Part shown: positions 2,251 to 53,046 of the stretch, piece by piece | Layout: the number at the start of each line of letters is the position of its first letter | Position numbering within the stretch: the stretch's first letter is position 1 | IMG/VR virus record: IMGVR_UViG_3300025280_000039 | Coordinates: 1 to 55,777 of that record | DNA from: a virus | Lineage: Duplodnaviria > Caudoviricetes | DNA length: 55,777 nt | Reading direction: 5' to 3' (one strand) | Program-made: the position numbers and the translations under genes | Notes under the pieces: model-generated | The model's database searches: none | Seen by the model: the letters and a program-made list of their open reading frames with translations, nothing else | What the model was told of the DNA's origin: nothing

Positions 2251-2447
2251 GCCCTGGACCGTGCGAGAGGTGCCACCAACCGATTTTGGATGAGGATGAT
2301 TACCATTCGGATGATTCGGGCGAACATCACCAAGCCTGTTTTGACGAGTGGTTCAAGGAGGAGGGGGCCTATTGGCGTCCGATTTACGATCGGGAAAAAC
2401 GTGCTGGACTGATACCGAAACGAGGAGATGATAGTGACCGTATTTGA
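2247..2447 (+). CDS. small hypothetical protein (CxxC...HxxC, possible Zn-binding)
   Basis: ATGA overlap; CERC...HQAC. Confidence 0.5.
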   Translation: MSPGPCERCHQPILDEDDYHSDDSGEHHQACFDEWFKEEGAYWRPIYDREKRAGLIPKRGDDSDRI

Positions 2448-3300
2448 TGAGAGTAAAATTGAGCAGAATGTTCGTGACAGGTTTGCAGCGGAAGAAGACG
2501 CAATCCGGATACCAGTACGAAAACTGGACCGGGACATACTCAAGGCCGCTTCGGAGTTGACATCGACGGAGGCGAGATTTCTGGTCGATGCTTATTACTC
2601 GATGCAAGCTGGGCGCATCCGCGCCAACAACCAGATTCGTGCCCTCACGGAAAGCGGGGAACCGCATGAGAGCATCGGTTGGCTTTCAACCGAGAGCCGT
2701 GTGCTGGAGGAGAGTGTCAAACGCGCCTTGGACGTCTACTCGGATAACCACCCTGTCGGAACCAGAATGCGGACCGTCGTGGGGGTCGGGCCTGTTATTG
2801 CAGCAGGCTTCCTGGCCCACATCGATATAAACCGAGCGCCAACAGCGGGTGCAATCTGGCGCTATGCAGGACTCGACCCAACCAGCGAATGGCGCAAGGG
2901 TGAGAAGCGACCCTTCAACGCGGCGCTCAAAACCTTGTGCTGGAAACTCGGCGAGTCCTTTGTGAAGGTGTCAAACCACCCCGACTCTCTTTACGGACAA
3001 ATCTATAAGGAACGCAAGGACATCGAGCTCAGCAAGAACGAGGCCGGCGACTTTTCCGACCAGGCTGATGCTAAATTGGAAAGGTACAAAATCGGGAAGA
3101 CTACCGACGCCTATAAAGCGTATTCCATTGGCAAACTGCCACCGGCCCACATTCATGCGCGCGCCAAGCGGTATGCTGTGAAAATGTTCATCTCACACCT
3201 CCATGAAATCTGGTACGAGATCGAACTTGGGAAACCGGCACCCGTTCCCTACGTCATGGCGCACGGCGGCCATGTCCATAAGATCGAGCCGAACTGGTAG
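2428..3300 (+). CDS. tasA: TIGR-associated Nop-domain protein, nuclease-less (TasA-like; IS110/Nop superfamily)
   Basis: Coiled coil (LVDAYYSMQAGRIRANNQ), then VVGVGPVIAAGFLAHID...AGAIWRYAGLDP...FNAALKTLCWKLGESF...YKERK...HIHARAKRYAVKMFISHL, the IS110 C-terminal/Nop fold; no N-terminal DEDD RuvC; no SG serine loop after GLDP; GGAG SD; repeat-spacer array starts 7 nt after the stop. Confidence 0.85.
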   Translation: MIVTVFDESKIEQNVRDRFAAEEDAIRIPVRKLDRDILKAASELTSTEARFLVDAYYSMQAGRIRANNQIRALTESGEPHESIGWLSTESRVLEESVKRALDVYSDNHPVGTRMRTVVGVGPVIAAGFLAHIDINRAPTAGAIWRYAGLDPTSEWRKGEKRPFNAALKTLCWKLGESFVKVSNHPDSLYGQIYKERKDIELSKNEAGDFSDQADAKLERYKIGKTTDAYKAYSIGKLPPAHIHARAKRYAVKMFISHLHEIWYEIELGKPAPVPYVMAHGGHVHKIEPNW

Positions 3301-13679: not shown

Positions 13680-15627
13680 AATGCCTGAAGATCTCTTTGA
13701 CGAATCGGTTTGGACTCCTCCCGCGGAGCTCCCAAACCTGTCGGACGCGACAGTCATGGCGATTGACGTAGAGACACGAGATCCACATCTCAAAACGCTT
13801 GGGCCTGGATGGCCCAGGAAGGATGGCAATCTGATTGGGGTGGCTGTGGCCGTTGATGGATGGAATGCCTACCTGCCCTTCGGTCATGGGCCTGTTGGCG
13901 ATAATCGCGGTCATGGAAACATGTCCAAGACGCTGGTGCTGCGATGGCTGAGGGATCAACTGTCGCACGGTATGCCGGTAGTGTTTCACAACGCCCAGTA
14001 TGATTTGGGTTGGCTGCTGACCGAGGGGGTAGAGGTTAAGAACCCCATACTGGACACAATGATTGCTGCCCCGTTGCTCGATGAGAACCGCTTCAGTTAC
14101 GCATTGAATTCGCTGGGCGCTAGCTATCTAGGTGAGCGTAAGCAGGAGGAGGACTTAAGACGGGCCGCGGCACAGCACGGCGTGGATGCAAAGGCTGAGA
14201 TGTGGAAGCTCCCGGCGGCCAGGGTTGCGTTGTATGCCCAGACAGATGCCCGGTTGACCTTGGACCTTTGGCATGTGTTGAACCGCAAGCTCCGTGAGGA
14301 CGGCTGCCAGTCCATCCTGGACCTAGAGCTCTCGTTGTTGCCGGTGGTGTTTGAAATGCGCCGGCGTGGAGTGCGTGTTGATTTAGAGAAGGCAGCGCGC
14401 ACCAAGAAGGGACTTCTGGATCTAGAGAATTCACTGCTAACGGAAGTTAAAAAGCAGACAGGTATCTGGCTGGAGCCATGGAACGCCCAGAGTTTGGCCA
14501 GTGTTTTTGACAAGCTTGGGCTAGAGTATGGCCGAACGGCCAAGAGCGGAGCTCCAAGCTTTACAAAGCATTTTTTGAAGACGCACGAGCACCCTATCGC
14601 CAAGACCATTCTTGAGATCCGCGAGTACAACAAGGCGAATACGACTTTTGTCGATACGATCTTGAACCATCAGCATGAAGGCCGTATCCATTGTGAGTTC
14701 AATCAACTGCGCTCAGACGGCGGCGGTACGGTGACGGGGCGGTTTTCTTCGAGCCATCCTAATTTGCAGCAGATGCCGGCAAGGCACCCTGAGATCAAGA
14801 AGTTGATACGAGGGCTGTTCCTGCCGGAAGAGGGCTGCCAGTGGGGGAGCTTTGACTACTCAGCCCAGGAGCCACGGTGGCTGGTGCATTACGCATGCCA
14901 GACAAAGATAGGTCTCGAGGACGATAAGGTCCAAGAGATAGTGAGGCAGTATCACAAGGACGATTTGGACTTCCACCAAAAGGTCGCTGACATGGCCGGG
15001 GTGGATCGAACATTGGCCAAGACCCTGAATTTGGGAATCATGTACGGGATGGGTGTGGCGAAGATGGCGACGGTGCTTGGGGATATCTCCTTTGAGGAGG
15101 CCAAGGCCCTACGCAACGAGTATGAAAGGGAGGTGCCGTTTATCAGAGAGTGCGCCACCTTGGTTATGGAGAGGGCAAAGAAGCGCAAGGAAATTAAGAC
15201 ACTGCTGGGGCGTAAGTGCAGGTTTCCAATGCGGGAGAAGCACGGTGAGAAGCTCTCACTGATTCACTACGAAACGGTAGAGGCGCAGTGGAAGGAGATT
15301 ATGGATACGCCCGGCGATGAACGAGAGGCCAAATACGGCCCTCTCTGGAAGTGGAGAGATCCAGACAAGCAGAAAGTAGCGTTTGTATATAAGGCGTTGA
15401 ATAAGTTGATTCAGGCGTCAAGCGCCGATCAGACAAAGCAGGCAATGGCCGATTGTAGCAGTAATGGCTATTTACCCATGCTCACTGTTCATGACGAGCT
15501 CTGCTTTTCAATTGAAAGCGATGAGCAGGCAGCTCATATCAAGCAGCTCATGGAGACGTGCATCGAGATGAAGGTGCCGTCAAAAATAGACATTGGTATT
15601 GGCGATAATTGGGGAGAAGCAAAATGA
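13648..15627 (+). CDS. polA: family A DNA polymerase with 3'-5' exonuclease
   Basis: DVET exo I, FHNAQYD exo II, TGRFSSSHPNLQQ, DYSAQEPR motif A, KTLNLGIMYG motif B, VHDEL motif C. Confidence 0.95.
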   Translation: MAKKHTSTIFKMPEDLFDESVWTPPAELPNLSDATVMAIDVETRDPHLKTLGPGWPRKDGNLIGVAVAVDGWNAYLPFGHGPVGDNRGHGNMSKTLVLRWLRDQLSHGMPVVFHNAQYDLGWLLTEGVEVKNPILDTMIAAPLLDENRFSYALNSLGASYLGERKQEEDLRRAAAQHGVDAKAEMWKLPAARVALYAQTDARLTLDLWHVLNRKLREDGCQSILDLELSLLPVVFEMRRRGVRVDLEKAARTKKGLLDLENSLLTEVKKQTGIWLEPWNAQSLASVFDKLGLEYGRTAKSGAPSFTKHFLKTHEHPIAKTILEIREYNKANTTFVDTILNHQHEGRIHCEFNQLRSDGGGTVTGRFSSSHPNLQQMPARHPEIKKLIRGLFLPEEGCQWGSFDYSAQEPRWLVHYACQTKIGLEDDKVQEIVRQYHKDDLDFHQKVADMAGVDRTLAKTLNLGIMYGMGVAKMATVLGDISFEEAKALRNEYEREVPFIRECATLVMERAKKRKEIKTLLGRKCRFPMREKHGEKLSLIHYETVEAQWKEIMDTPGDEREAKYGPLWKWRDPDKQKVAFVYKALNKLIQASSADQTKQAMADCSSNGYLPMLTVHDELCFSIESDEQAAHIKQLMETCIEMKVPSKIDIGIGDNWGEAK

Positions 15628-16238
15628 AAGATTACTTAATTCAGGTCCGCGTCAAGAACGGCTATTTGCATAGGAGAATGCGCGAAATGGGCTTTCCCTC
15701 AAACGCAGCCCTGAGTCGAGAAAGCGGGGTCAGCTCGTCGCGTATCGGGGAGTTTTTGAACCTCAAAAGCTACCCGATGAGCAGAATTACGGGACAATGG
15801 CTTGCGGGCGTGCAGGCGCTGGCCGACACACTCAATTGTCTTCCAGAGGACCTGTTTCCGCCGCAGCACATTCAAGACCCGCTCACAAAAAATAAAGTGG
15901 AGTTCGAGATGAATTTGGATGAGGTGCGGTTGCTGGAAAGACAAAGCGACCCTGAGGCCCTCTTGCTTGAAGATGAGTCTCGGACCCTGGTCCATGCGGC
16001 GTTGGCCAGCTTGGCCAAGAAAAATCCCAGGGAAGCGCAGGCTGTTCAGCAGCGGTTTTTCGAGGACGCCACTTTAAAAGAAATCGCCGATAAACTGCCA
16101 TACACAATTCGGCCCCCTAGCGGGAGCGGTCCCCGAGAGACAAAAACAGTGTCTGTGGAACGAGCACGACAGATGGTTAAAAGCGGTATACGAGACCTGA
16201 AAAAAATTCTGGAGATCCCACAGGAGTTTTGGCGATGA
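15624..16238 (+). CDS. HTH plus sigma-70 region 4-like transcription regulator
   Basis: N-terminal XRE-like HTH (NAALSRESGVSSSRIG); C-terminal PREAQAVQQRF...TLKEIA...VSVERARQ. Confidence 0.7.
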   Translation: MKDYLIQVRVKNGYLHRRMREMGFPSNAALSRESGVSSSRIGEFLNLKSYPMSRITGQWLAGVQALADTLNCLPEDLFPPQHIQDPLTKNKVEFEMNLDEVRLLERQSDPEALLLEDESRTLVHAALASLAKKNPREAQAVQQRFFEDATLKEIADKLPYTIRPPSGSGPRETKTVSVERARQMVKSGIRDLKKILEIPQEFWR

Positions 16239-16272
16239 CTAGGGGAAGCAGAGAAATTATTTTCGTCAGGCC

Positions 16273-45144: not shown

Positions 45145-47586
45145 CTATTCTCCTCGACCAGCGCTTCCCATCTCGCCAATCCTTTCCAAGTTAACATCGG
45201 CCCTGAGCAGGGCAATATCCTCCTGCGAATCCATCTTCTCGCGGGTCAAGTCCTGACGTTCTGCCTCGCGTTGTTCCTCAAACGCTTGCTTAGAAGAAAA
45301 CTCATCGGCTTTACGCTGCATGTCCAAAGCCTTAATGTCGAGCTCCTTATCACGTAACTGCACAAGCGGGTCAATCTCGCCGGCAGGCGGCGGCAGCAAT
45401 ACGGCCATAACCTCTTCGGTGTATTGCGCGATGTACTGCGCAACCTTGGCCTCCACGTCCACCTGCATTTGCTGCTGGGCCTCCTGCGGAGAAATCTGCC
45501 CCGTAGCCTGCATCTGTTGCATCTGCTGAGCTTGCTGCATCATCTCGGCTTGCGCAACTCCTCTGGCCTTAAACGCAATATGCTCGCACAAATGCGCCTG
45601 TAGTAACGCAAAAATAGCGGGTGTAGCAGCAGGCGTTGGCGTCTTCATAAACATAAGGTGAGCGGCTATGTGCGCGTCATGATCCTGCGTCGGAAACGCC
45701 TGTAATGTCTCCTGAATGATGGATTTAGCATTCTCTATCGCCGGATCGGTGGGCTGCGGAGGTGTCGGTGTCGGTAAAACACCCTCGATGTTCGGAACGC
45801 CAATGGCTTCATAAATACGCCGGTAAGCCTCATACAAATTGTGCATTTGCGGGTTGGTCTGAGCCAACTGCAACTGCGTCTGCGCAAGTGCCAACCTTTG
45901 CGACATCGAGAAGATGTTGGGGTCGCTGACAGGCATGATATCGATACGATCGTCAAAATCAGCCTGTTTTATCAGCGTCTCAGCACCCCATACGTTGTAG
46001 GGGTACATGGGCGGCAAAGATTCGGCAAATACTTTGGCCAACATCTGAAATTCAAGCTTTTGAGCGTAATGCAACCGCTTATGGACCGCCGACATCACCT
46101 TAGAACCGCGCTCGAGGAGTGCCACCGTGGTCCCAACCGCCGCCTGCTGGTTGCCATCGCCTACCTGCAAGTCCGCAATGGCCGCAAACCGCTGGCCAGC
46201 AGCAACTACAAAGCCCAAAAGCTGCATTAAGGTCTGAGACGGCTCCTTATACGGCAACGGGAGGATACTTTGACTGAGAACTCCACCAGGAACGTCAATA
46301 TCACGAAATTCACCAGGAGAAAGAGGTACATCAGCATCACGAATGCGGATGCCGCGAGCTTTGAAGCCAGCAGGAAGATTTGCCAAGGTGCCTGCATCAA
46401 TAAGTTGCCTCAAAATGGAGGTTGCGGAACGCCCCAACCCCCCAATCATGTGCAAAAGGCCAAAACCGTAAAATCCAAGCCCCGGGAGGAACTTGTAATG
46501 AGTGAAATAAGGGATTTTGCGGAAAAGATCGTCACCTTCACGCCAATTTCGCCGGATAGAGAGGATTTTCGAGCTTCCTTCGTCCATTGTGACGATATAT
46601 GGCAGCTTTATGCCCGTCGGCTCGCCATCGATAGGGTGCATATGCTCAAAACCAGGTAGATCCAGGTCCGTATGCACCTCTAAAAGCGTACAATCCTTGT
46701 CATCTGTGGTTTTTTGAATACCGGACAGCTCTCTTTCCTTGTCCCTGACCTCATCGTCCTCGTCATACGGCACCAATTCCACTTCCCGGTAGAACATACC
46801 GGCCTGAAACTTACGAACATCGTTCTCCGACATGCGAATTACATGCGTAATCCGGGCCGCGGAGTTCAAATCGGTCGCGTTATAAGGAACCACCAGGTCG
46901 TCCGCCGGCACAAACCGTGCCACCGCCCGGTCCAAAAGGTCATCGAAGTAGATTTTCTTGAAAGCACTCCCGGCTAACGGCAAATAAAACAACAACCGAT
47001 CAGTCTCAGGGTCGAATTCATCCATCACATGGATGATCTGGTAGTTCATGAACTCCTTGACGCGCTCGGACTGAGCCTCAGTCTCAGGAGTGGAAACCCC
47101 TATAATCTGTGTGCGCACCGGCCCTGAACTGGGCAAAAGCTCCTTGTAGGCTTGTGCCTGGAACTGGGTGACCGCCTCAGCAATCAACGGGTGGGTAACA
47201 CCGCTCGAACCCCTGAACGGCTCTTCACGCTCCTCATACTTAATGCCTAGCAACCCTAGACCATTTACATAGGCGTCTTCCCAGTCATCACGACTGGCAC
47301 GATCGTCCTTATACAAACCAAGCAGATCGTTGGCAATCCTCATGAGCTCCCGCTCATCGAGAACCTCCGCCAGATTGGCGTCAGGCTCAGCCTGGAGCTG
47401 CTCCTGCATCTGCTTTTCAAAATTCAAAACAACAGAGCCGTCTTCCTCCTCAATCATCCCGGTCGGCTCTTCTATCTGCTCAACCTCGATGTCCTCCTCC
47501 GTCATGCCACCAAGAGGCATTCCCTGAGCAGGCATGATTTCGTCTACAAGAGAGGGTCTTCCATTAGCCATTACATCACCACTCAA
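45145..47586 (-). CDS. portal protein
   Basis: HPLIAEAVTQFQAQAYKELLP..GPV, LPLAGSAFKK, LPGLGFYGFGL, LIDAGTLANLPAGFK; start may be MANGRP at 47571. Confidence 0.9.
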   Translation of the reverse strand: MSGDVMANGRPSLVDEIMPAQGMPLGGMTEEDIEVEQIEEPTGMIEEEDGSVVLNFEKQMQEQLQAEPDANLAEVLDERELMRIANDLLGLYKDDRASRDDWEDAYVNGLGLLGIKYEEREEPFRGSSGVTHPLIAEAVTQFQAQAYKELLPSSGPVRTQIIGVSTPETEAQSERVKEFMNYQIIHVMDEFDPETDRLLFYLPLAGSAFKKIYFDDLLDRAVARFVPADDLVVPYNATDLNSAARITHVIRMSENDVRKFQAGMFYREVELVPYDEDDEVRDKERELSGIQKTTDDKDCTLLEVHTDLDLPGFEHMHPIDGEPTGIKLPYIVTMDEGSSKILSIRRNWREGDDLFRKIPYFTHYKFLPGLGFYGFGLLHMIGGLGRSATSILRQLIDAGTLANLPAGFKARGIRIRDADVPLSPGEFRDIDVPGGVLSQSILPLPYKEPSQTLMQLLGFVVAAGQRFAAIADLQVGDGNQQAAVGTTVALLERGSKVMSAVHKRLHYAQKLEFQMLAKVFAESLPPMYPYNVWGAETLIKQADFDDRIDIMPVSDPNIFSMSQRLALAQTQLQLAQTNPQMHNLYEAYRRIYEAIGVPNIEGVLPTPTPPQPTDPAIENAKSIIQETLQAFPTQDHDAHIAAHLMFMKTPTPAATPAIFALLQAHLCEHIAFKARGVAQAEMMQQAQQMQQMQATGQISPQEAQQQMQVDVEAKVAQYIAQYTEEVMAVLLPPPAGEIDPLVQLRDKELDIKALDMQRKADEFSSKQAFEEQREAERQDLTREKMDSQEDIALLRADVNLERIGEMGSAGRGE

Positions 47587-48507: not shown

Positions 48508-50007
48508 CTAATAATAAACACGCGGCCTTAAATCATAAAAAGGCTCCACATCTTCCTCATCAGTGTCAAGTCGTAGAAACCCGCCTTTACGATACCTTAT
48601 TAAAGCCATGCTCATCGAATCACAGTAATCGTCATAATCCCCATTGGGAAAAGCCGCACACTCGTCAATCACTTCCTCAGAAAAACGCTTCTGCGGAGCC
48701 CATACCTTCCCGCTCTCGAAAATAGGAGCCACCATGTGCATCCGCGTGTGCTTGTCCTTCCCCTTGGATGGAGTGTAGTTCACAACCGGTATGCCTATGT
48801 TCCGCAGCTCATCAGTCAACGGCGTACCCGTCGCCTTGGCCTCAATCAATACCATGTCCGGCTCCCAATACTTATACTCCTCGAGCGCCTTGGCCTTCAA
48901 CTCAGGAAAATCCCAACGACCACGCTGCGCATCCATCAAAATAAGACTGTCAGGACCATACTCGTTAGGCTTGAATACCCCCCACGTCGTAATGGCCGAA
49001 TAATCCGCCGTCTCCTTCTTCGAAAACGCCGTATCGTAACTCTGCATGATGTAACTGACCGCCGGCGCCTCCTCCTTCTCCCACTTGTTCCACCACTCCT
49101 TCTTTATAATCGCCCCCTCTTCAGCCGTGGGATTCTGCTGCCACTGCGCATTCCACTTGCTAAGCGATAACGACGCCTTGACCTTGAGCAACTCGTCCTT
49201 GTTCCAAAACTCAGGCCAAAGAATAGAACCACTAGGCAGTATCGCCGGGAACTCCACCAAGTCCCACTGGTCCGCCATTACATCCGTCGCCTGCGCCCTA
49301 ACCAACTTCCCAGTCAAATCCTTCAACGACCACCGGGTCATTACTATAACTATCGATCCCCCCGGCTGTAATCTCTGACGCGGTCCAGACGTGTACCACT
49401 CGTACGCATGCTCCATGGCCGTCTCAGAAAGTGCATCCTGCTCCGAATGCGGATCATCAATGATGAGCAAATCAGCACCACGACCAGTAATCGCGCCTCC
49501 AACACCAGCCGCATAATATTCACCCCCCTGCGCAGTCTCCCACCGACCAGCAGCCTTAGAATCGGCACGTAAATCGACATCCGGAAATACCTCTCTGTAC
49601 TCCTTCATCTCCATCAGATTCCTCACCTTACGACCAAACCTAACCGCTAACTCAGCCGTGTGAGTAGTCTGAATAATCTTTAACTCGGGATTCTTACCTA
49701 TCAACCACGCCGGCAACAGATAACTCGCAAACTCACTCTTAGTATGCCTCGGCGGCATGTTCACAATTAACCGTGAACCATGATCCACCGCCAATTTCTC
49801 AAAACACTTCGCTACCTGTATGTGATGCGACCCCTGTATAAATCCAGGATATACATGCCTGACAAATGTCAAAAAATCACTCTGACGCTTGTCCCGCTTG
49901 CTAAGCGTGCGCTTCGCTTCCTCCAAAACAAGTACTTCACGAACAACCTCGTCAGGCGCATTCAGCACAAATAACTCCAGGCTCCCAGCCATGAGACCAC
50001 GGACCAA
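48508..50007 (-). CDS. terL: terminase large subunit
   Basis: NMPPRHTKSE, TGRGADLLIIDDP, VMTRW, SYDTA...ADYSA, FPNGDYDDYCDS. Confidence 0.93.
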   Translation of the reverse strand: MVRGLMAGSLELFVLNAPDEVVREVLVLEEAKRTLSKRDKRQSDFLTFVRHVYPGFIQGSHHIQVAKCFEKLAVDHGSRLIVNMPPRHTKSEFASYLLPAWLIGKNPELKIIQTTHTAELAVRFGRKVRNLMEMKEYREVFPDVDLRADSKAAGRWETAQGGEYYAAGVGGAITGRGADLLIIDDPHSEQDALSETAMEHAYEWYTSGPRQRLQPGGSIVIVMTRWSLKDLTGKLVRAQATDVMADQWDLVEFPAILPSGSILWPEFWNKDELLKVKASLSLSKWNAQWQQNPTAEEGAIIKKEWWNKWEKEEAPAVSYIMQSYDTAFSKKETADYSAITTWGVFKPNEYGPDSLILMDAQRGRWDFPELKAKALEEYKYWEPDMVLIEAKATGTPLTDELRNIGIPVVNYTPSKGKDKHTRMHMVAPIFESGKVWAPQKRFSEEVIDECAAFPNGDYDDYCDSMSMALIRYRKGGFLRLDTDEEDVEPFYDLRPRVYY

Positions 50008-50139: not shown

Positions 50140-50260
50140 TAGTGAGTACTTACTAACATCGATGCTCCCGACATAGATCTGGGTTAGTGAGTACTTACTA
50201 ACATCGATGCGCGCAAGGTCGACTCAAGCGGGGTTAGTGAGTACTTACTAACATCGATGC
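50140..50260. repeat. three 26-bp direct repeats with near-palindromic core
   Basis: TAGTGAGTACTTACTAACATCGATGC at 50140, 50185, 50235. Confidence 0.9.
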
Positions 50261-50312
50261 GCGCTCGAACCAATGGCGAAAGCATGTTGTTTCTACCCTA
50301 ACATGGACGCTG

Positions 50313-50401
50313 TAAGTTGTTGATATCTCTACTGTTTTTCTTGAGAAAACTGTCAGAAAAGAAGAAACTGAGTCGAAAAAAGTACCTGTAAGTCGTTGAT
50401 A
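50313..50401 (-). promoter_or_regulatory. two IHF-consensus sites within an imperfect direct repeat
   Basis: Minus strand TATCAACAACTTA (50313-50325) and TATCAACGACTTA (50389-50401) match WATCAANNNNTTR. Confidence 0.55.
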
Positions 50402-50422
50402 TATCTACTGTTTTATCAGTTA

Positions 50423-50452
50423 TTGACACCATATGGTAAATCATGGTCTAAT
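50423..50452 (+). promoter_or_regulatory. sigma70-like promoter for ardC operon
   Basis: TTGACA-18 nt-TCTAAT with TG extension. Confidence 0.55.
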
Positions 50453-50751
50453 CTACCTACAGACACGGCAAAAGGAAAACTTATAGAACAGCTCACGCGC
50501 GACACCCCCAGGGGTCCAGACCCTGACATTAAAAGACCTGGCGACACTTGATAACTCTGATCCTTGTTATAGGGGTAAGACCTGACCAAGATGACGAAGC
50601 CCTCCCAGAGAATCTAGCGAGAATGGCGCTGAAGTCTAAGGTAGCTACTCGGGAATTAATCAACTTATGCATGGCAAGCTTGTCAGCCATAACGTCTTCT
50701 CGGGCGCTATGGCTGACATGTTTGTCAGGTACACAAGCAAGGGGATAGCAA

Positions 50752-51687
50752 ATGAAGAAACGCAAAGATGTGCGCGCACTTGTTACGGCGGCACTTATCG
50801 AGCAACTAGCCGCCGGCACAAAACCTTGGTCAAAGTCGTGGAGTATCTCTGGCACTGGGTTACCCAAACGCCACACTGGCGACTTGTATCACGGGATCAA
50901 TCGGCTGCTACTTATGATGCTAGGTTACGATAACCCATATTTTATGACGTTCAATCAAGCTGCAATATTGTCTGGAATGACAAAAGATAAGGGTTGCAAT
51001 TGGATACGCGAAAACGGTAAAGGTGTTAGGTCAGGTGAGAAATCACCTGCTCACGTTGTCTACTCTGCACAGAAAACGGTCCGCGACTATGACAGCGATG
51101 CGCCAGACGCCAAGAAAGAAGTCTACTTATACTGTCAAAGTGCGGTTTTCAACGCTTCGCAGATCGACGGTTTGCCAGATCGATATTATCCAGCAACTAT
51201 CGAGATCGATGCTAACAAGACACTGGAACATCACACTGCAGCGGACGCACTAGTCAAAGCAATGGAAGATGAAGCTCCTATTGAATATCAAGGTGACAGT
51301 GCATTCTACGCACCAAGTCGAGACACAATTCGATGTCCAGTGCCACAAGCTTTCGAAAGCATGGACGCATTCTACGCAACCCTGTTACACGAGGGTGTGC
51401 ACCGTACTGGCCACAAGTCTCGGCTAGATCGGACACACGACTACTCTGAGAAAACTGGCAGAGCTCGAGAGGAGTTAGTGGCCGAAATTGGTGCAGCGAT
51501 GTTGTGCTGTGCAATTGGACTCAGCGATAAGCCTAGAGAAGACCATGCGAGTTATATCCATAGTTGGATCCAGTTATTGGAAAATGACAAGAATGCGATC
51601 TTCTCAGCCGCGAAACAAGCCGATAGCGCTATGGCCTACATGCTGGATCAAGCAAACCAGTTTCACGGACGTGTCATAGCGGCGTAA
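50752..51687 (+). CDS. ardC: ArdC-like anti-restriction protein (ssDNA-binding plus zincin-like domain)
   Basis: KPWSKSW...YHGINRLLL...FMTFNQA...GVRSGEK...VFNASQIDGL...AFYAPSRDTI...LLHEGVHRTGH..RLDR...REELVAEIGAA. Confidence 0.9.
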   Translation: MKKRKDVRALVTAALIEQLAAGTKPWSKSWSISGTGLPKRHTGDLYHGINRLLLMMLGYDNPYFMTFNQAAILSGMTKDKGCNWIRENGKGVRSGEKSPAHVVYSAQKTVRDYDSDAPDAKKEVYLYCQSAVFNASQIDGLPDRYYPATIEIDANKTLEHHTAADALVKAMEDEAPIEYQGDSAFYAPSRDTIRCPVPQAFESMDAFYATLLHEGVHRTGHKSRLDRTHDYSEKTGRAREELVAEIGAAMLCCAIGLSDKPREDHASYIHSWIQLLENDKNAIFSAAKQADSAMAYMLDQANQFHGRVIAA

Positions 51688-51748
51688 TCCTACTGATGAC
51701 CTGGGATGGTAACCCAGCGAAACCAGCCGCATAGCGGCTGGTATAGGA
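51688..51748 (+). ncRNA. type I hammerhead ribozyme motif 1
   Basis: TCCTA-CTGATGA-C-CTGGG/CCCAG-C-GAAA-CCAGCCGC(ATA)GCGGCTGG-TA-TAGGA; GUA triplet, predicted cut after 51743; lacks canonical G10.1. Confidence 0.7.
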
Positions 51749-51770
51749 AAACCAAAAGGGGAGTAGAAGC

Positions 51771-51950
51771 ATGAAACCCAAGAAGCGCAAGCCTGGTGCC
51801 TGGTGCCTGGTGCCTAGTGATAGCCAGTTGAATGAGGAAGAAATAGACGCGATCGTAGAGCTCTACCGAGATCGATTTAACGGACAATGGAATAACTCTA
51901 CTGAGCTCAGAATTCTATGCATGAATGCATACGAACGGCAATTGGATTAA
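51771..51950 (+). CDS. small hypothetical protein (59 aa) between the two hammerheads
   Basis: MKPKKRKPGAWCLVPSDSQLNEEEIDAIVELYRDRFNGQWNNSTELRILCMNAYERQLD; GGGGAG SD. Confidence 0.55.
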   Translation: MKPKKRKPGAWCLVPSDSQLNEEEIDAIVELYRDRFNGQWNNSTELRILCMNAYERQLD

Positions 51951-51953
51951 TCG

Positions 51954-52017
51954 TTCCTACTGACGAGCCTGGGATGGTGACCCAGCGAAACCAGCCGCTA
52001 TGCGGCTGGTATAGGAA
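51954..52017 (+). ncRNA. type I hammerhead ribozyme motif 2
   Basis: TTCCTA-CTGACGA-GC-CTGGG/CCCAG-C-GAAA-CCAGCCGC(TAT)GCGGCTGG-TA-TAGGAA; full core; predicted cut after 52011. Confidence 0.85.
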
Positions 52018-52043
52018 AACCAACCAAGAAAGGATAGAGACAG

Positions 52044-52379
52044 ATGCTTATACCGAAACTGACAATCGAATGGGTAGAGTCGAGGACAGCGAACAAGTCT
52101 GCGAGTATCCACTACGAAAACACTGTGGCTATGAAGAAAGTATCTGAGCACCAACCCAAGATTCTGGGATGGATTGCGCCACGGGAAACGGACTTGATGA
52201 GCCGGTGGGGATTCGGCGAAGTAAAGGAATTCTCACGGAAAACTCTCAATACGAAGAGTGTCAAACCTAACTTGCAGAATCAATTAGCGATCGGCGCGGT
52301 AACATCACAAGAGTTTGACGGATTTTGGAACACCAGCATTATTCCCGCGCGCTACACGCTCAAGAACAGAGACGTTTAA
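52044..52379 (+). CDS. hypothetical early protein
   Basis: Preceded by ACCAACCAAGAAAGGA leader. Confidence 0.6.
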   Translation: MLIPKLTIEWVESRTANKSASIHYENTVAMKKVSEHQPKILGWIAPRETDLMSRWGFGEVKEFSRKTLNTKSVKPNLQNQLAIGAVTSQEFDGFWNTSIIPARYTLKNRDV

Positions 52380-52439
52380 CCAGCACCATTGAGGGCGAGC
52401 AATGCTCGCCCTCACCACCAACCAAGAAAGGATAAAGAC

Positions 52440-52589
52440 ATGACCAGATTTATAGACAGTCCAGAGATTATCAATCGTAAACGGTTTCATTTTCTCGGTT
52501 ACGTGCTAGCTGTAGTGCTAGCACTAATAAGCGGTTTCATCTTGTACCCATTAACCGCTTGGATCTTTGATCGCATAGGAGGATTCTAA
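52440..52589 (+). CDS. small membrane protein
   Basis: MTRFIDSPE...FLGYVLAVVLALISGFILYPL; same leader. Confidence 0.55.
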   Translation: MTRFIDSPEIINRKRFHFLGYVLAVVLALISGFILYPLTAWIFDRIGGF

Positions 52590-52590
52590 C

Positions 52591-52830
52591 GTGGCTGTTA
52601 CCATGCAACGATACCTCAAACTTGCTACCGGATATGATGGTAGCGCCTACACGATTGGCGATCGAGTGGAACTTCATCCCGGTACAGATCTTTGGATGAT
52701 GGGCGCTCGCTATGGTGAGGTAATCGGCATGAGCTTAACGCCTAACGATAGAGTGCGCGTCAAGCTTGACGCATTCCCAGATAGGAAAACTCCATTCGCT
52801 GGATCTGCGGATACCTTTAGAAAGATATAA
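52591..52830 (+). CDS. hypothetical early protein
   Basis: AGGAGG SD; IGDRVELHPGTDLWMMGARYGEV. Confidence 0.6.
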   Translation: MAVTMQRYLKLATGYDGSAYTIGDRVELHPGTDLWMMGARYGEVIGMSLTPNDRVRVKLDAFPDRKTPFAGSADTFRKI

Positions 52831-52857
52831 GCTGACCAACCAAGAAAGGAAAAAGAC

Positions 52858-52998
52858 ATGGCGAAACATAGAAATCCTAGGAAGAAGTCAAGCTTAGCGC
52901 GTAGAAGAAAAGGGAAGAAATCACAATGGTCTATGCGCTCACTCGACAAAAGCGGCACCATTGTGGAAGTAGAGATGCCATTTACTAAGCAATTGTAG
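52858..52998 (+). CDS. small basic protein (46 aa, not in ORF track)
   Basis: MAKHRNPRKKSSLARRRKGKK...; same ACCAACCAAGAAAGGA leader. Confidence 0.5.
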   Translation: MAKHRNPRKKSSLARRRKGKKSQWSMRSLDKSGTIVEVEMPFTKQL

Positions 52999-53013: not shown

Positions 53014-53046
53014 AACGCGCCTAGGCAACTAGGCGCGTTTTATTTT
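53014..53046 (+). terminator. intrinsic terminator closing the ardC operon
   Basis: AACGCGCCTAG-GCAA-CTAGGCGCGTT then TTATTTT. Confidence 0.8.

Follow-up and report, generated by a model that had tools for sequence, protein, structure and literature searches.

Results

Two hammerhead motifs lie beside an anti-restriction gene in a marine phage genome

The window, by which we mean the whole stretch of DNA analysed here, is one entire IMG/VR virus record (55,777 bases, completeness rated at 96%) from an uncultured marine tailed phage whose identity is backed by terminase, portal, primase, helicase and DNA polymerase genes. Of 21 sequencing runs listed as containing this DNA, none is registered as RNA; the DNA runs are marine metagenomes, and a blastn comparison of positions 50700-52900 with the GenBank phage collection returned no match. 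Terminase and portal belong to a structural-gene block on the minus strand that also contains a virion protein gene; the primase, helicases and DNA polymerase lie in plus-strand blocks. From 50752 on, the plus strand carries an ArdC-like anti-restriction gene and then small ORFs, in the order ardC, HH1, ORF59, HH2, ORF111 and onward, where HH1 and HH2 are the two hammerhead motifs under study. The features of the region are as follows.

10.6-15.6 kb, plus strand: primase, helicases and DNA polymerase (plus-strand blocks)
45145-47586, minus strand: portal (structural-gene block)
48508-50007, minus strand: large terminase (structural-gene block)
50140..52018, plus strand: accessory block made up of tandem repeats, ardC, HH1, ORF59 and HH2 (absent by blastn from the related contig L011)
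50752..51687, plus strand: ArdC-like anti-restriction gene, 311 aa, whose stop abuts HH1 (Pfam, PHROG)
51771..51950, plus strand: ORF59, an orphan 59-aa ORF with a Shine-Dalgarno (SD) sequence, starting 27 nt past the predicted HH1 cut site
51791..51819, plus strand: 7-nt tandem repeat, 4.1 copies, within ORF59 (Tandem Repeats Finder)
52044..52379, plus strand: ORF111, the gene that opens the conserved block downstream, starting 32 nt past the predicted HH2 cut site
53014..53039, plus strand: terminator-like hairpin and T run (consensus scan, pattern match only)

The ArdC-like gene matches Pfam families PF18818 (1.7e-39) and PF08401 (4e-18) and PHROG 7245, annotated 'anti-restriction protein' (5.6e-71), and its product has 1517 homologues, many of them labelled ArdC by their source. 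ORF59 matches no Pfam or PHROG family, finds only itself among 5.8 billion proteins and has no informative Atlas neighbour (scores < 0.8); its AlphaFold2 single-sequence model consists of two helices at a pLDDT of 61, too weak for a fold search. Because the unit of the repeat inside ORF59 is 7 nt, not a multiple of three, a change in its copy number would shift the reading frame. One metagenome run has a loose end at 51789 with a short repeat of another kind. The transcription unit probably ends at the 53014-53039 hairpin. Elsewhere in the genome, a 290-aa ORF at 2428-3300 (plus strand), inside a plus-strand gene block, matches a PHROG annotated as transposase (3.5e-50).

Both motifs have the core and topology of type I hammerheads

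HH1 and HH2 are near-identical elements of 68-69 nt on the same strand, each with a full hammerhead core, and can be laid out as follows.

51688-51755, plus strand: HH1, type I hammerhead (core motif, fold, score under the covariance model R2 described below)
51688-92 with 51744-48, plus strand: HH1 stem I, its first base directly after the ardC stop
51693-51699, plus strand: HH1 core CUGAUGA (motif)
51700-18, plus strand: HH1 stem II region (fold)
51719-21, plus strand: HH1 GAA; GAAA begins at 51719
51722-42, plus strand: HH1 stem III hairpin (fold)
51743/51744, plus strand: predicted HH1 cut, after A51743, the end of GUA (motif)
51751-54, plus strand: HH1 pseudoknot partner ACCA (complementarity)
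51955-52023, plus strand: HH2, type I hammerhead with canonical core (core motif, fold, R2, sub-threshold RF03152)
51955-59 with 52012-16, plus strand: HH2 stem I, beginning four bases past the ORF59 stop
51960-66, plus strand: HH2 core CUGACGA (motif)
HH2 stem II, plus strand: G10.1-C11.1 pair, then one bulged C (fold, comparison of the copies)
51987-89, plus strand: HH2 GAA; GAAA begins at 51987
51990-52010, plus strand: HH2 stem III hairpin (fold)
52011/52012, plus strand: predicted HH2 cut, after A52011, the end of GUA (motif)
52019-22, plus strand: HH2 pseudoknot partner ACCA (complementarity)

An earlier note, made from the letters of this sequence, had proposed two near-identical hammerhead motifs here, and core, fold and positions are all as it described. 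The first motif does follow the ardC stop directly (TAA at 51685-51687, stem I from 51688). The cut positions that it gave, 51743 and 52011, and their spacing of 268 nt likewise agree with our reading, cleavage itself being a prediction; the fragment between them would carry ORF59 (51771-51950) together with its SD.

Each copy combines an open stem I of 5-6 bp, a stem II of 5-6 bp with a 7-nt loop and a stem III of 9 bp, which is the type I topology. The 5' core C3 U4 G5 A6 N7 G8 A9 is present in both, as are G12 A13 A14, the A15.1-U16.1 pair and an A, not a G, at H17. The minimum free energy (MFE) fold of either copy is a three-way junction (z = -4.1 and -4.3). The minus strand folds equally well, so that the strand was assigned by the core motifs and the orientation of the genes.

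The only differences between the copies are N7, the one G, a single base in loop II and three bases in loop III. With a palindromic stem and three loop bases that are complementary between the copies, the loop III differences look like a single inversion of the hairpin loop. The 12 nt past each cut (51744-51755 and 52012-52023) are identical between the copies. Stem III was also considered as a transcription terminator and rejected: no U tract follows it, and the consensus scan lists no terminator there.

A covariance model built without the window copies recognizes both

A loose core pattern matched the window three times against 0.23 expected, a count reached in 1 of 100 shuffles. The search with Rfam hammerhead models that the earlier note had recommended gave no match in the whole window at gathering scores. 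In E-value mode over 51400-52300, HH2 matched RF03152 below threshold (31.4 bits against a cut-off of 56.3); no other hammerhead family matched in that interval, and HH1 went unmatched. Because the gathering scores yielded nothing in the window, relatives were gathered by pattern scans, which gave 6 viral loci, 8 metagenome loci and, from a further viral scan, additional loci among the matches listed.

A covariance model built from 12 sequences (R1) and run over 93 sources returned 47 hits, 44 of them distinct rows. Paired bases fill 94.1% of the cells in these rows against 63.5% after shuffling, in an alignment that was fitted to the model and thereby favours pairing; the covariation score is 0.739 against 0.172, and 12 of the 14 pairs show changes on both sides. 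When the partners were slid by 1-3 columns, pairing dropped to 28-46%, which argues that the signal is real despite the model-fitted alignment. Covariation is strong in stems I and III, A15.1-U16.1 is invariant (44 of 44 rows), and the presence of G.U pairs fits a structure at the RNA level.

We built a second model, R2, from 43 hits in other phage and metagenome contigs, leaving out the window copies and their nearest relative, L020. On the window it gives 59.9 bits to HH2 (E 7e-13) and 49.8 bits to HH1 (E 3e-10), and its next best match on either strand of the 55.8 kb reaches 13.6 bits; the genome has just these two copies. Both elements look like genuine type I hammerhead ribozymes, with predicted cleavage.

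R1 has 25 hits in 18 related loci, and not one of them comes up to the gathering score of an Rfam family; in these loci Rfam found only a tRNA and a type II hammerhead elsewhere in L077. That locus has a type I member and the Rfam-recognised type II hammerhead (52.1 bits) at 216-286 and 734-798, both on the minus strand and ~450 nt apart. An 18-mer of stems II and III that matches the viral contig L001 was set aside as chance, the sequence being unrelated and free of any hammerhead pattern. A pattern scan of a genome collection gave two matches, of which R2 scored one, L216, at just 16.9 bits and the other, L217, not at all, and which thus provide no clue to the host.

The copies share the layout of a family of intercistronic hammerheads

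These comparisons place HH1 and HH2 in a family of type I hammerheads that lie between the cistrons of phages. Among the 44 distinct members, 33 have a frame of 40 codons or more upstream that stops within a few nt of stem I, and in 35 a SD and a start codon lie 15-45 nt past the cut, usually before a small ORF. The layout is strict: stop codon, ribozyme, ~27 nt (about 25-35), start codon. The window copies match it, with gaps of 0 and 4 nt between stop and stem I and leaders of 27 and 32 nt, and ORF59 occupies the spot where other members of the family have small genes.

Arrays recur within the family. Two same-strand R1 hits are found in each of L005, L006, L009, L016, L066 and L096, and three in L035. 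In L066 the order is an ArdC gene (40% identity), a hammerhead, small ORFs, a second hammerhead and a GP88-like gene. The nearest relative of the window hammerheads, at 1145-1224 on the minus strand of L020, carries a compensatory change from G-C to A-U in stem III and an A opposite C at 10.1-11.1; it is followed by a terminator-like hairpin and a T run, with no gene start.

Two sub-classes can be told apart. In the first, stem II is 4 bp long and capped by a pentaloop; the second, to which both window copies belong, has a longer stem II and a loop with UGGU, whose complement ACCA lies 1-2 nt past stem I, in HH1 and HH2 as well. At least four complementary bases between loop II and the 3' flank occur in 22 of the 44 rows, against a mean of 9.7 and a maximum of 17 with shuffled loops (1000 trials). 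The 3' motif was required in the further viral scan; among the 12 rows that were not chosen for the motif (A2), six have the UGGU/ACCA pairing. A control with reversed flanks is uninformative because the motif reads alike when reversed, and the shuffled-loop control alone counts. In L073 the pair reads UAGU/ACUA, a compensatory variant. A pseudoknot between loop II and the 3' flank is likely in the window copies. Perreault et al. report such a pseudoknot in ~40% of hammerheads and show that fast cleavage requires it, its disruption lowering the rate by orders of magnitude (Perreault 2011, PMC3088659).

The first copy carries a mispair beside the core

The G that closes stem II in HH2 had been noted as missing from the first copy, and comparison of the two confirms it: without a partner for C11.1, HH1 has a C.C mismatch at 10.1-11.1, directly beside the core, where HH2 has its G10.1-C11.1 pair. 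In the family alignment position 10.1 forms a G-C pair in 33 rows, and HH1 is the only one of the 44 distinct rows with a gap there. The suspicion that this copy may be weaker is accordingly justified. The mismatch leads us to expect a slower ribozyme, and HH1 is probably slower than HH2 and possibly inactive. In the alignment A3, 7 distinct rows have an extra U between A9 and G10.1, and an A stands opposite C at 10.1-11.1 in 3 (L020, L014 and L065).

We tentatively entertain, as a possible but less favoured course, that only HH2 works and that HH1 is decaying or very slow; the transcript would then be cut once, between ORF59 and ORF111, and no 268-nt RNA would be released. The lost G and the unique gap that it leaves point this way, as does the score of HH1, 10 bits below that of HH2 under the independent model R2, and a mispair of this kind has been treated as a ground for rejecting candidates unless their activity was shown (Perreault 2011, PMC3088659). 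However, HH1 is intact at all its other core positions, in its three stems and in its pseudoknot partner, and departures at 10.1 recur in the family in the form of the inserted U and of the A opposite C. The HH1 form is moreover inherited and no error of assembly, since variant metagenome contigs ~2% diverged in ardC span HH1, or most of it, without an indel.

HH2 marks the edge of an accessory cassette

The block that contains both hammerheads is accessory. L011, a 7.7-kb contig ~88% identical to the window, is syntenic with it (~87-89%) up to 50139 and again from 52019, and has 279 nt of other sequence in place of the 1,879 nt of the block. The right edge of the block is the 3' edge of HH2, and because homology to L011 resumes there, HH2 marks a cassette junction. 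The ORF111 homologue of L011 (87% amino-acid identity) has no hammerhead upstream. The left edge of the block opens with a 50-nt tandem repeat (2.7 copies, 50140-50268). The corresponding stretch of L011, ~2737-3015, includes a long run of GGGTT-like repeats, and a short hairpin just precedes the ORF111 homologue.

Two marine metagenome runs have loose ends at 52019 that show junctions of the L011 type, and one joint in the metagenome contigs, labelled 'skips 673', has sides of just 18-30 letters. The ardC gene itself occupies different genomic places in related phages, as indicated by L136 (1370-2926), where an ArdC gene (61% identical) lies directly upstream of a gene 92% DNA-identical to window positions 15624-16248, with no hammerhead between the two. 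A search for related loci with this ArdC sequence alone found none, and ArdC loci were gathered with an alignment. R1 has a hit in 2 of 80 phage ArdC loci, and a strict pattern finder places hammerheads in at least 4 of the 80, with none in a reversed control; the latter count is a lower bound, since the finder tolerates no bulge and fails to pick up HH1 and HH2 themselves. A general link between ardC and hammerheads was rejected at these counts, and the association is occasional. In one ArdC locus, L209 (2135-4772, plus strand), the strict finder (reversed control 0) marks four motifs that resemble type II hammerheads, all on the strand of ardC, and two of these stand on either side of the gene.

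The boundary at HH2 raises the idea that the hammerheads are mainly portable cassette boundaries, ~68-nt linkers whose homology would serve the swapping of accessory genes, with cutting then insulating the cassette. We rate this as rather unlikely to be their main role, somewhat below a single cut by HH2. Besides the absence of the block from L011, with its edge at the end of HH2, and the other location of ardC in L136, it would account for contigs that link HH2 to other upstream or downstream sequence (loose ends at 51958, 52019 and 52022), for a summed contig depth that peaks over both hammerheads, and for two copies that are near-identical between unrelated flanks. Yet no metagenome contig shows a hammerhead-to-hammerhead deletion of ORF59, the metagenome pieces are short and may stem from several phages, and the copies within other arrays, such as L005 and L016, are often quite different. 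A boundary role would also add to a cleavage function and not replace it.

Discussion

Probable processing between cistrons

We consider it probable, on the strength of the sequence comparisons and published precedent, that HH1 and HH2 are both type I hammerheads that cut a polycistronic RNA between its cistrons, HH1 probably more slowly, and that they thereby uncouple and insulate the cistrons. The motifs, their family membership, the layout and the cassette boundary are observations; cleavage, its rate and any effect on expression we infer from the family and from published arrays. One transcript, running from upstream of ardC to the hairpin at 53014-53039, would carry both ribozymes. HH2 would cut itself after A52011, and HH1, probably at a lower rate, after A51743. 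Each upstream cistron would stay whole with its stop codon and end in a folded ribozyme with a 2',3'-cyclic phosphate, and each downstream cistron would receive a 5'-OH leader of 27-32 nt bearing its ribosome-binding site. The cistrons would thus be uncoupled without the help of any protein, so that their stability and translation could differ, and HH2 in particular would act as an insulator between the inserted ardC/ORF59 cassette and the conserved operon that follows. The effect of such 5'-OH and cyclic-phosphate ends on RNA stability depends on the host.

Several observations run against this reading: the mispair of HH1, scores below the Rfam gathering thresholds, a long-range fold that competes with the two ribozymes (see below), and the fact that the hammerheads are not conserved with ardC. 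The earlier note had likewise favoured processing of the polycistron. What stands of its proposal is that two same-strand motifs bracket a small ORF after an ArdC-like gene, for which processing is the standard, if hypothetical, reading in phage arrays; the 'early operon' and 'stabilised units' of which that note spoke are interpretations.

There is precedent for such processing. The 2011 survey describes multiple hammerheads that flank single genes or short gene blocks in prophages, and reports that three clustered arrays cleaved during in vitro transcription (Perreault 2011, PMC3088659). In A. tumefaciens the array flanks the anti-restriction gene ardA together with a gene of unknown function, and for this array cleavage was observed upon expression in E. 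coli as well (PMC3088659); the authors proposed that long phage transcripts are processed into single-gene mRNAs (PMC3088659). A 2019 review repeats the processing hypothesis, calls the function unresolved and asks for more work (PMC6765202). Our literature search on the function of phage hammerheads found nothing newer than these two; a 2026 paper describes type I hammerheads as usual in bacteria and phages.

Two further fates of the RNA seem very improbable. Hammerhead cleavage leaves 5'-OH and 2',3'-cyclic phosphate ends, which can be ligated. The earlier note suggested a coding circular RNA. RNA 51744-52011 with ORF59 could in principle be circularised, through reversal of the hammerhead reaction or by an RtcB-type ligase of the host, to give a stable circular coding or regulatory RNA. 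The 12 nt past the two cuts being identical, the 5' end of the excised 268-nt RNA could dock into HH2 as HH2's own product would, and ligation would then yield, free of protein, an exonuclease-resistant and translatable circular mRNA. Compatible ends are all that speaks for this scenario, to which we give very little weight: HH1 may be weak, the layout of the family is that of ordinary cistron junctions with stop codon, ribozyme and ribosome-binding site, and circular or spliced products were looked for in comparable arrays and none was detected, as the 2011 paper states for the arrays it describes (Perreault 2011, PMC3088659).

The stem III hairpins at 51722-51742 and 51990-52010 are exact reverse complements, and the MFE fold of the 441 nt from 51640 to 52080 pairs them over 21 bp in place of the two ribozymes. 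It is just as hard to credit, however, that this duplex, with ORF59 looped out, serves as a processing stalk cut by RNase III of the host, since perfect palindromic hairpins present in two copies are bound to be largely complementary to each other, since local hairpins should form first during transcription, and since the invariant core, the covariation in 44 rows and the many single-copy members of the family would be left unexplained.

We keep self-cleavage between cistrons as the preferred reading. On that reading, the locus offers a compact test case, in which a canonical and a naturally impaired ribozyme sit in the same operon, with a clear cassette boundary at the edge of a ribozyme and a close relative that lacks the cassette. 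Nothing about it would surprise a ribozyme specialist. Because Rfam models miss the family, elements of this kind are probably under-annotated in phage genomes.

Comparison with known systems

Insulators of the RiboJ type are engineered elements derived from a plant satellite RNA, in which a hammerhead placed before the ribosome-binding site fixes the downstream 5' leader. The window shares with them a hammerhead between upstream sequence and a ribosome-binding site; it differs in that its arrangement is natural and that insulation is suggested only by the cassette boundary.

The RAGATH-1 hammerhead (RF03152), the only Rfam family to match at all, resembles the window elements in its 5-bp open stem I, its CUGAUGAG core, its long stem III and its GU(C/A) cut site. 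It differs in that HH2 reaches 31.4 bits against a gathering score of 56.3, with the 5' hairpin of the model largely deleted, and in that HH1 does not match.

HHphage, described from the haloviruses HF1 and HF2, is likewise a phage hammerhead that precedes a start codon, that of an early-region gene, by a few nt, and a transcript 5' end was mapped within three nt of its cut site (Perreault 2011). In contrast to the standard core of the window elements, it is a structurally unusual variant, present in single copy in archaeal viruses.

The closest parallel is provided by the arrays of the same study. As in these, same-strand hammerheads lie in one phage transcription unit and bracket a small gene beside an anti-restriction gene, and polycistron processing has been proposed; there, a pseudoknot, likely in the window copies, often provides the contact between stem I and stem II (Perreault 2011). 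Unlike in those arrays, of which the triple array around ardA in Agrobacterium tumefaciens is an example, the neighbour is ArdC-like and not ardA, the sequence is an uncultured marine phage contig and not a prophage, the two ribozymes are both type I and near-identical, one has a mispair beside the core, and their activity is predicted. The type I subfamily may already be among the supplementary datasets of that paper. With two same-strand hammerheads 268 nt apart flanking a single gene in a phage genome, the locus is a new example of the layout described in phages in 2011.
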